DNA of 64,000 nucleotides from Stylophora pistillata (Eukaryota): NCBI RefSeq assembly GCF_002571385.2, contig NW_019217794.1, positions 135,972-199,971 of the forward strand, in the 5' to 3' direction. Both the position numbers and the translations under genes were made by a program. Shown here one piece after another: positions 151 through 3,100 of the stretch. The notes beneath the pieces are model-generated. The model was not told the DNA's origin. It ran no database searches and saw only the letters and a list, made by a program, of their open reading frames with translations. How positions within the stretch are numbered: position 1 is the stretch's first letter; every line of letters begins with the position of its first letter.

Positions 151-3100
151 CTGGAAAAAAAAAAAAAAAAGGAATGTTGACGGAACCTGAAAAATGGTTC
201 TTTCCACAGAATCCACTTCTTTTCAAAAACCCTCCCAATGACTCTTCAGATGGTTTGAATCAGAGCTTATCTTGGGCTTTGCCCACTGAGCAAGAGAGCT
301 TGAAAGCTGAAAATGTCTCTCACCTTATTGAAGGAAACTCCTGATTGATCTTCAGTTGTGTCAGCTTCAATTGTTACGTTGTCAAACCACATGTGGGCTG
401 AAAGTACAACCAAATGCAATTAAATGTAGGTTTGGCCACTGGATAAAAGCAGGGCTCAACACTTAACAGTAGCCAACTAACTACAGACGAGTAGAAATTC
501 AGTTTTGGATAGTGGTTTTCTGTTTCCACTCACCAGTTTGGCTGGTAAATAAACTGAAATTGTTGTAACATCTAAGTTGGCACTACAGGGCGTAAAATTA
601 ACTTTTTTATTCAGGTAGCCACTTGGCTCCTAAATATTTTATGCACACGCATCCTATTTAGTTAAACGAGTACTACCAGGAACTAATTTGTTTCTACGCA
701 ACAGGCCACGCATGCTTGAAGAAGATTTAACAGGCCGAGCACAGAGGGCTTTATTTCTATGTGGACCGTACGGGAAGTTAAAAAATAAACGCCTCTGCCA
801 GCAGGTTAAATAAGAAACAAATCAGTGTATTTTCTGATTATGATCAGGGTATAAAAGTGCTAACAATGGTTCCTTACCCACAGTCATTCTGTTTTGAGTG
901 AGTGTACCAGTCTTATCAGAACAGATTGTTGATGTACTGCCAAGAGTCTCCACAGCCTCAAGATTTTTCACCAAGCAGTTCTTGGAAGCCATCCTTTTAG
1001 CTGTGAGGGTCAAACACACCTTCACAAAGAAAAGGAAAACATTGAATTTAAATTTCAACTAATGCAAACATTAAAATCCTAGTTTGCCGGCATTGGACAT
1101 GCAGTTATCAAAGACATTGGGATAGTACCTGTCCAACTACATGTGCATGCACATGAAAAATGACCAGATAAGTTTTACCTTAGCCACGGTTGTCATTAGA
1201 AGCTGATAAGAAGCAAAAAAAAAAAAAACTCGGACCATTTTTCCCCAGTAACTTTGTGAATTGAGATCAAAAACAGGAAACAACTACTTTTTAAAATTAA
1301 TCTAACATCAAAAAAGATTAGTCGAATTTGTCCCAGAAGGTTGTAAATCATGTCTCAGAGAGAATCAAATTTCAATGATTTCCAGGGAAGCCTGTCCCTG
1401 GATCCTTCCAGGGAGGCATGCTGCACTGCAAGCATAGTTCAATTGAACCACCTGCTCAGATCATGTCACATTAGAATTCCTAATCACAACTCTGCAGTAA
1501 ATAGTTTGAACCCCGGGGTAACATGTGAAGGTGTAGTCTTATCGTCCGGGTGAGTGTAGTCCTGAGAAGAACTGTTGTCGGTGGTAGTGACTGACGTTTC
1601 GACAACCTGTGCGGAAGTCATCATCAGAGTCAAGTGAATGATTGTTGTTGTCGGTAGAATGTTCTTATTCACGAACTGGAATAAGAATATTCTACTGACA
1701 ACAATCATTCACTTGACTCTGATGATGACTTCCGCACAGGTTGTCGAAACGTCAGTCACTACCACCGACAACAGTCCTTCTCAGGACTACACTCACCCGG
1801 ACGATAAGACTACACCTTCACATAATCACAACTCTGCCTTAAGTAGCTGAATAAAGATCAATTCTTGGAGCATCTGGTTTCTCAAAAACAATGATTTCCA
1901 TTGAAAAACAAATTTCATGAAGTGGCCCAACAGTTCAAATAGAAGATTGTGGAGTTTCACATGAAAAGTCACACAAATTTTTCCTGAGAAACTGGAGATG
2001 AGTCTGATAAGGTTTTGTGCATTCTCTCACACAGAACTCTGGATTAAAATGAATGTCCACACTTACTGTAACAGTTGCAAGAAGACCTTCTGGTACGTTG
2101 GCCACAATGATACCAATCAAAAAGATCACAGCTTCTAGCCAGTTGTACTTCAAAATAAATGCGATGATGAAAAAGGAGACACCAAGGAAGACAGCAACAC
2201 CAGTAATGATGTGGATAAAATGTTCAATCTCAATAGCAATTGGAGTTTTGTCAGAGCCAAGACCACTAGCCAAGTTAGCAATACGTCCCATGACAGTGTT
2301 GTCTCCAGTTTGCACAGCGATACCAATGCAGTTTCCTTCCAGTCCATTTGTTGAGAAGAAAGCAAGATTCCTGGTTTCTAAAGGATTTTGATTGGTACAG
2401 TCAGGGCCTCTGCTCTGGGGCTCAGATTCACCAGTGAGTGAGGAGTTGTCCACCTTCAAATAAAAATGTGCCAACAACTGTGCTTAATATAATTAAATAG
2501 CAGGATAATTAGGACAGGCAAGTGACAATGATGTTTATAATAATTTGAAAGATAAATTTTTGATGTAGAGTTTTACTGCTTTCTGAATTGCCTAGATAAA
2601 GGGAAAGGCCACATAATGCCATAGATCATGTTACCATCTTTTCAACAATGGCATAGCTCCATCTTTCTGTATATAAACCACACACATCCCATAATTCCTT
2701 CATTTCCTCTGACAAAGGGCTAATACTTGAAATATCAGCTTTAAAAACTCTTAACAGTGGCCAGTTTTCTCCATTTCAGTCAATAAAACCAAATTATGCT
2801 CTTGTAATGGGGACTGAATTTTTCTGGAAAAGATTAGGCACTTTTTAAGGCATTAGTCTTGGAAGCAGGTTGCTATACCTTGAAACCTCTTGCTTCTACT
2901 ACTCTGATGTCTGCAGGAACTCTGTCACCACCTTTCACAAAAATGATGTCACCGACAACAACTTCTTCTGCATTAATAGTACGTCTCTCGCCACTTCGCA
3001 AAACATTTGCTTCTTGGGGAACCAAATTCTTAAAGCTGTCCATGATTCGAGAACTCTTAGCTTCCTGAAATATGAAACATCACCATTGTCATTGTTAAGA

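Follow-up and report, generated by a model that had tools for sequence, protein, structure and literature searches.

We analysed a window of 64,000 nucleotides from Stylophora pistillata and focused on an insert at 1481-1837, which lies in an intron of a minus-strand gene whose adjoining exon matches Na/K-ATPase alpha (E 1e-62). A sequence-only reading of the window had described a 327-bp insertion with a 15-bp direct repeat and inverted-repeat arms inside a Na/K-ATPase intron, and this description was borne out by the exon match and the intron at 2066-1020, by the coordinates of the repeat and by the folding of the arms. The features are listed below, with signed positions counted from the hammerhead cut site and pLTR standing for pseudo-LTR.

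1020..2066, minus strand: host intron of the Na/K-ATPase alpha gene, GT..AG, phase 0
1481..1495, no strand: target-site duplication (TSD), left copy, the last 3 nt of which also match the element 3' end
1496..1522, minus strand: Penelope 'tail' of 27 nt; the same tail terminates most copies, with 3' ends bimodal at +97/98 and +66-69
1523..1670, minus strand: tailed pLTR arm, 5'-truncated at -75, hammerhead-sense in the pump pre-mRNA
1588..1632, minus strand: minimal hammerhead motif of type I on the pre-mRNA strand, with its cut site after C1593, overlapping the element start codons
1671..1678, plus strand: head-to-head junction and loop, element sequence found only in the tail-less arm
1671..1823, plus strand: inverted pLTR arm without tail; its 5' truncation is at -84 and its other end at +69, the upstream one of the two family end points
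1714..1758, plus strand: minimal hammerhead motif of type I on the strand opposite to the pump gene, with its cut site after C1753
1823..1837, no strand: TSD, right copy, the first letter of which is common to the element end

The insert lies 229 nt from the intron donor and 461 nt from the acceptor. In two stranded runs, RNA depth was about 9-69 over the pump exons on the expected strand and 0-2 over the intron flanks. Since the contig carries a further Na/K-ATPase alpha paralog about 50 kb away (C11:87353-87739, plus strand, 81% identity in the tested exon), the earlier description of the pump as essential is unproven. Neighbouring introns of the pump gene hold two related short repeats rich in TAGCCAC/GGCTAG (~445-760 and ~3770-3940), and the many DNA contigs and RNA reads on 700-821 point to another abundant repeat family. 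Elsewhere in the window, 40056-43171 contains a near-identical duplication of ~1.1 kb at a spacing of 2,023 nt, which flanks an N gap (41165-42078) and probably reflects overlap in the assembly, and related sequence at ~80% identity lies near 60100-64000. A few long exons on the plus strand at 51110-57872 belong to what we take, by eye, to be an ABC transporter of the ABCC/MRP-like type, while the minus-strand ORF at 18543-19340 is presumably tektin-like.

The 327 nt of the insert are enclosed by two copies of a perfect 15-nt direct repeat, TAATCACAACTCTGC, at 1481-1495 and 1823-1837. The repeat stands as first described; as a duplication it measures 11-15 nt, since 4 of its 15 letters also match the element ends. 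Within the insert, 1523-1670 pairs with 1679-1823 to form arms of ~145 bp that close an 8-nt loop and are interrupted by a bulge of 3 nt and a single true mismatch, and the hairpin folds at -284.8 kcal/mol (z -36.5), a value equalled by none of 100 shuffles. The unit is asymmetric, with the 27-nt family tail (1496-1522) present on one arm only, outside the hairpin, and with the tail-less arm reaching 9 nt further 5' than the tailed one (-84 and -75, respectively). The insertion is real, since its outer junctions are spanned by contigs from two public runs; the samples concerned (S2 and S3) both carry it and may represent the assembled genotype. Three substitutions and one indel of 3 nt separate the arms, which is close to the mean of 1.07% private changes per site in the sample, so the insert can be called young, as had been proposed, in a relative sense only. 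It has no ORF, and only two pLTR stubs are left.

Each arm carries a hammerhead motif with all of its core elements. On the plus strand (1714-1758), stem I (TGACT/AGTCA) is followed by CUGAUGA (1719-1725), an extra U (1726), stem II (1727-1745), GAAA (1746-1749) and a loopless ACGU, with the cut site after C1753; the minus-strand copy runs from 1632 to 1588, with the cut site after C1593. The hallmarks of minimal hammerheads are thus all present (CUGANGA, the extra base, G10.1-C11.1, GAAA, palindromic 15.2-16.2 and NUH), and the claim of a complete core in each arm stands as far as these elements go, with stem I at 5 bp and a weak stem II of 3 bp, a UU/UU internal loop and 2 bp. A hammerhead does lie on the pre-mRNA strand as claimed, but its cut site is at 1593 and not at 1753. 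For the bare CTGATGA..GAAA pattern, the count in the window does not exceed chance, with 5 matches against 1.86 expected and 7 of 100 shuffles reaching 5. The covariance-model search suggested by the first reading did not bear it out, since an Rfam scan returned no hammerhead family among its 17 matches up to E 10. MicroRNA precursors (MIR2630 and others) were rejected as an identity, since the best match scored 126.3 bits against a gathering threshold of 144 and the matches reflect the hairpin shape.

On the other hand, conservation in genomic copies favours a real motif. The hammerhead core with other stem II sequences has 164 further genome matches (control 0), and at least six other families in the genome combine the same core with unrelated but pairing stems. 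The 1.1-2.1 position pairs in all seven family representatives, with four pair types, and stem II forms 3-7 bp of unrelated sequence in six of the seven, its first pair being fixed by the search pattern; stem I exceeds 2 bp in only three. A related protein (25-48% identity) was found in 12 of the 30 fetched loci of core-bearing families. Judged by its full core, its stems and its conservation across families, we consider the hammerhead motif to be genuine. The loci L242-L271 represent at least six further hammerhead-bearing families, several of which are also arranged head to head (e.g., on C30, C51, C146, C253 and C332).

To which element the repeat belongs is indicated by its sister copies. 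The right arm returned 1,417 first-look genome candidates, the best scored at 99%, and a 24-mer marker from the family has 1,230 exact genome matches (control 0). In sister copies, an ORF with reverse transcriptase (RT) and GIY-YIG domains lies directly upstream of, and runs into, the same repeat. Three of them (L027, L028 and L030) encode a YVDD RT motif and GTIYKINC..C..YIGETGR, and Pfam RVT_1 and GIY-YIG match sister copies at E 2e-4 to 9e-4, with scores that fall short of the curated cut-offs. A DKG motif lies upstream of the RT core (ILPADKGRV in L020 and L274), and in L274 a 486-codon frame that includes this motif opens from two ATGs inside CUGAUGAUG and continues through the tail, such that the pLTR overlaps the ORF start and contains the hammerhead. 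Among the 30 loci fetched for the N-terminal piece, no gap-free full-length element was found. Together, these features identify the repeat, as judged from its coding context, as the pseudo-LTR of an endonuclease-bearing Penelope-like element, and they agree with the Penelope-like origin first suggested from the motif: the link to RT ORFs, with the ORF start inside the hammerhead, also favours a real motif. No cysteine cluster between thumb and GIY-YIG was seen by eye in the L028 translation, and an element without a Zn-finger linker would be of the Penelope/Poseidon type, apart from Neptune and Nematis; the motifs therefore point to the Penelope/Poseidon clade.

Endonuclease-bearing Penelope-like elements are described as having an inverted pLTR, one tail and a TSD (PMC3846280, PMC8557442), and the insertions of the family fit this description, being 5'-truncated and inverted, with a TSD and, optionally, a tail. 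When we sampled the first 100 marker matches listed (contigs C1-C20) together with their partner arms, 80 of the resulting 122 arms sat in 40 head-to-head pairs, and 19 of the 42 unpaired arms abutted an N gap or an edge. Exactly one tail was present in 35 of the 40 pairs, and both hammerheads were whole in 25, of which 11 were in units shorter than 400 bp. A larger set of 121 pairs, chosen by patterns and not at random, had one tail in 101 and a 12-16-nt duplication in 78. Genome-wide, 39 short hairpins carry both motifs within 10-130 nt, with 35 distinct junctions among these loci, and the junction of the window hairpin differs from those of the other 38. Family 3' ends are bimodal at +97/98 and +66-69, and the tail end at +97/98 is likely the downstream RT start site. 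These findings demonstrate that head-to-head doubling is the normal insertion product of this family, and the arrangement in the pump gene is nothing special but the Penelope family default.

Some loci in the larger collection have unusual junctions. L077, L148 and L150 (also L009 and L012) are two-tailed hairpins without a TSD and with mirrored or shared flanks, and they look like assembly chimeras. L090 (C6:1473887 and 1476802) and L099 (C8:1406449 and 1411944) each comprise neighbouring units with a common inner junction and different ends and flanks, which may reflect local re-copying of the inverted unit or mis-assembly. In L075, L076, L132, L134 and others, the inner junctions are often pieced together from short stretches copied from element sequence close by, and templated patches of this kind are expected of polymerase-theta-type end joining.

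The two arms of a pair resemble each other beyond what the family would give by chance. A subfamily marker was concordant in 64 of 66 pairs, where 25 discordant pairs were expected (p 1e-11), and 13 rare shared variants occurred in 11 of 86 pairs, compared to 0.9 in permutations. At the window locus, both arms carry a C>A change that is present in 6 of 1,236 marker matches. Since 180 private changes remain in the 86 pairs, wholesale conversion of one arm by the other is unlikely, and the shared markers indicate that both arms come from one source element.

Fold-back self-priming, in which the first cDNA or an antisense template gives rise to the second arm, has been proposed for rotifer Penelopes (PMC3846280) and also predicts source variants common to both arms, and in its favour junctions often fall at short palindromes or carry templated patches. 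However, this route requires that the tailed arm reach at least as far 5' as the tail-less arm, whereas the tail-less arm of the window locus is 9 nt longer and, among the 31 resolved pairs (9 of the 40 were dropped, 5 with two or no tails and 4 unresolved), the tail-less arm is the longer in 13, with a lead of up to 630 nt, the tailed arm is the longer in another 13, and the two are level in 5. In addition, the end of the tail-less arm is fixed at +66-69, which resembles an RT start site. Since the tail-less arm often reaches further 5', the arm statistics favour two independently primed cDNAs over fold-back, to which we give a small chance; this twin-priming step is read from genomic statistics, part of which could be mimicked by resection after fold-back or by arm-to-arm conversion. 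In LINE-1 twin priming, both target ends prime cDNA, giving an inversion inside the TSD. The coral insertions likewise have the inversion inside the TSD, but the L1 parts are non-overlapping, while in our case a single stretch of ~145 nt was copied twice, each time from its own fixed start.

In our reading, then, the insert is very probably a short non-coding head-to-head double pLTR copy, likely twin-primed from one source, with hammerheads that are passengers and predicted to be locked. To form it, the GIY-YIG endonuclease would have cut the target with a stagger of ~12-15 nt, and RNA of a single source element would then have been reverse-transcribed from both target ends, from one presumably at +98 (the tail) and from the other at +69. 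Both cDNAs would have stopped early, at -75 and -84, before being joined head to head by microhomology end joining.

Known systems share much of this anatomy. Pen2a_Av of Adineta vaga (PMC3846280; scheme in PMC8557442) is likewise described with head-to-head pLTRs, a shorter inverted copy, a short TSD, a tail at one end only and a pLTR containing the first ORF codons. The two differ in tail length (27 nt here versus 30-40 nt), in TSD length (12-15 versus 8-10 nt), in copy number (more than 1,000 versus a few) and in that the window unit consists of two pLTR stubs without an ORF. For Poseidon, the protein is reported to cut and extend both strands in vitro, with two RT start sites bounding the tail (PMC11167929). 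PAc, the Anolis carolinensis Poseidon of that report, resembles the coral family in that its ORF opens at stem II of the hammerhead, its tail is delimited by two RT start points located about 100-130 nt inside the ORF, a C-terminal GIY-YIG follows the RT, and there is no sign of RNA ends at the cleavage site; PAc was assayed in vitro, whereas the window family is known here from sequence analysis. Dual minimal hammerheads on opposite strands, ~100-700 bp apart, have already been reported (PMC4209133), and the metazoan Penelope-like motifs of that survey share with ours the loopless palindromic helix III, the extra base after A9, G10.1-C11.1 and a helix I of 4-5 bp, and differ from it in that helix II of the window motif is weak (3 bp, UU/UU and 2 bp). 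The family may already be listed in the supplements of PMC4209133, PMC8557442 or PMC11167929. In the open literature, we found no work joining hammerhead, ADAR, Penelope and editing, and nothing beyond a general review on twin-primed, inverted, target-primed Penelope insertion.

The proposal that the ribozyme is locked by its own antisense is supported by modelling. Whichever strand of this head-to-head unit is transcribed, and not only the sense strand as had been thought, synthesis of the antisense arm is finished by the time the first ribozyme base is made; in a folding model of the growing pre-mRNA, C3 pairs with the other arm at once and the probability of stem I is ~1e-49. These values come from equilibrium folding of RNA alone, and RNA-binding proteins or heavy editing could open the hairpin. 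Because the antisense arm precedes the ribozyme on both strands, the co-transcriptional folding switch that had been envisaged is not supported. The hairpin is instead predicted to zip during transcription and to leave with the spliced intron, such that the ribozyme at the window locus would not act and the pump mRNA would not be cleaved. Nor is the lock needed to account for tolerance of the insertion, as had been suggested, since minimal hammerheads are described as not cleaving as monomers and cleaving weakly as dimers (PMC4209133), the Anolis hammerhead as needing the element's protein and being dispensable for insertion (PMC11167929), and the isolated window motif itself prefers another fold (P 3e-4).

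If the RNA that is copied were cleaved, 5' ends would be expected at the cut site. We found no excess of genomic 5' ends there, with truncations in 14 of 30 matches (2 of the 14 being doubtful because of an N gap and a patched junction) compared to 13 of 27 at a control site that has the same context and lies 4 nt away, and only 2 of 102 sampled arms, both from one insertion, had 5' ends at -3..+1. On the other hand, 34 of the 102 resolved 5' ends fell at -69..-40, a density of 1.1 per nt compared to 0.24 at -39..+38 and 0.08 at -199..-70. A probe at -43 had 49 genome-wide matches, and 21 of the first 30 were truncations (a few doubtful). An initiator-like TCACTT at -45..-40 coincides with the peak of this family-wide cluster (equivalent to window 1685-1714), which is likely due to a transcription start in the pLTR; the ends of the window locus (-75 and -84) lie just upstream of it. 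A spliced intron was rejected as the cause of the ends at -40..-46, since upstream sequences vary between copies and no AG is present there.

Family RNA, examined in two stranded runs from one study at about 2% of each, is abundant on both strands, with depth in the hundreds. It shows A>G at 25 places and T>C at 31, compared to at most 15 for any other kind of change and to 6 and 7 in DNA contigs, and the changes are strand-coherent. At six places picked among the 40 rows listed, the change was present in 27-58% of matching-strand reads, 1-4% of reads from the other strand and at most 0.4% of DNA depth; the DNA controls are from other samples, and the reads stem from many copies. The strand-coherent A-to-G changes include three hammerhead positions, namely A14 (window 1598; 15% and 37% of family reads) and A15.1 (window 1597; 18% and 42%) of the catalytic core, the latter also being the first base of a Thr codon in the element ORF, and N1.1, the base after the cut site (window 1592; 25% and 41%). 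A-to-I editing is thereby indicated in Penelope family RNA at the family level only, and at most about 1% of reads carry the A that the window locus has at 1806. The suggestion that the insert makes a long dsRNA substrate of the ADAR type thus finds a counterpart in the family, while the window copy contributes at most that small share of reads; its hairpin may be edited like its sister copies. Clustered dsRNA editing in coral introns is known (PMC5850803). Retrotransposition of edited RNA was rejected, since A>G accounts for 8 of the 180 private changes and is likewise rare among the shared ones. No pile-up of read ends within the element was seen among the rows listed, which is a weak test in a fragmented library.

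One could picture the hairpin as a regulatory device, opened by editing, protein or pausing to cleave the pump pre-mRNA, or serving as a source of small RNA that tunes the gene. In favour of this, the pre-mRNA carries an intact core, the pump gene is expressed, and the heavy A-to-G changes in family RNA could loosen duplexes. However, the same changes also strike A14 and A15.1 of the core, the antisense arm is always made first (hence the stem I probability of ~1e-49), the window offers no same-sense dimer partner, the arms have drifted like those of other copies, and the RNA depth of 0-2 over the intron flanks is low, such that we consider a regulatory role very unlikely. That the hairpin is a mobile non-autonomous element, retrozyme- or MITE-like and copied as a unit, is hardly credible, since the 39 double-hammerhead hairpins of similar size and the few junctions that recur at different places, which would speak for it, are set against 35 distinct junctions at those 39 loci, a unique junction in the window, and recurrent junctions that are either one short palindrome or have mirrored or shared flanks resembling assembly chimeras. 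A self-copying hairpin was rejected on this junction diversity. Animal retrozymes reportedly derive from the pLTRs of Penelope-like elements (10.64898/2026.07.22.740005), and the non-LTR retrozymes described there share with the window unit a type I hammerhead, a short non-coding repeat and Penelope-like ancestry, but they form same-sense tandem arrays able to give active dimers, while the window unit is inverted and TSD-flanked. Identity with a non-LTR retrozyme was rejected, since the window has no tandem same-sense repeats and only two motifs of opposite sense.

Returning to the double pLTR copy, a wider model can be put forward tentatively, and we hold it to be possible but doubtful as a whole. 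Penelope would insert by duplicative twin priming on uncut RNA, with both ends copying one source from two fixed starts and many cDNAs running off where transcription starts, 40-69 nt upstream of the cut, and the hairpins would make family RNA an ADAR substrate, in which edits on A14 and A15.1 (15-42% of reads) would act as a feedback that disables the hammerhead in vivo.

Altogether, the insert in the pump gene probably represents common transposon debris rather than a regulatory switch. Short double-hammerhead hairpins like it number in the dozens, and inverted insertions of this known type of element in the hundreds. So dense a family is well suited to open questions about Penelope, namely how its inverted repeats form and whether the hammerhead cuts the RNA that is copied, of which we see no sign. 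The family also bears on host A-to-I editing, which appears to reach the catalytic core of the hammerhead.
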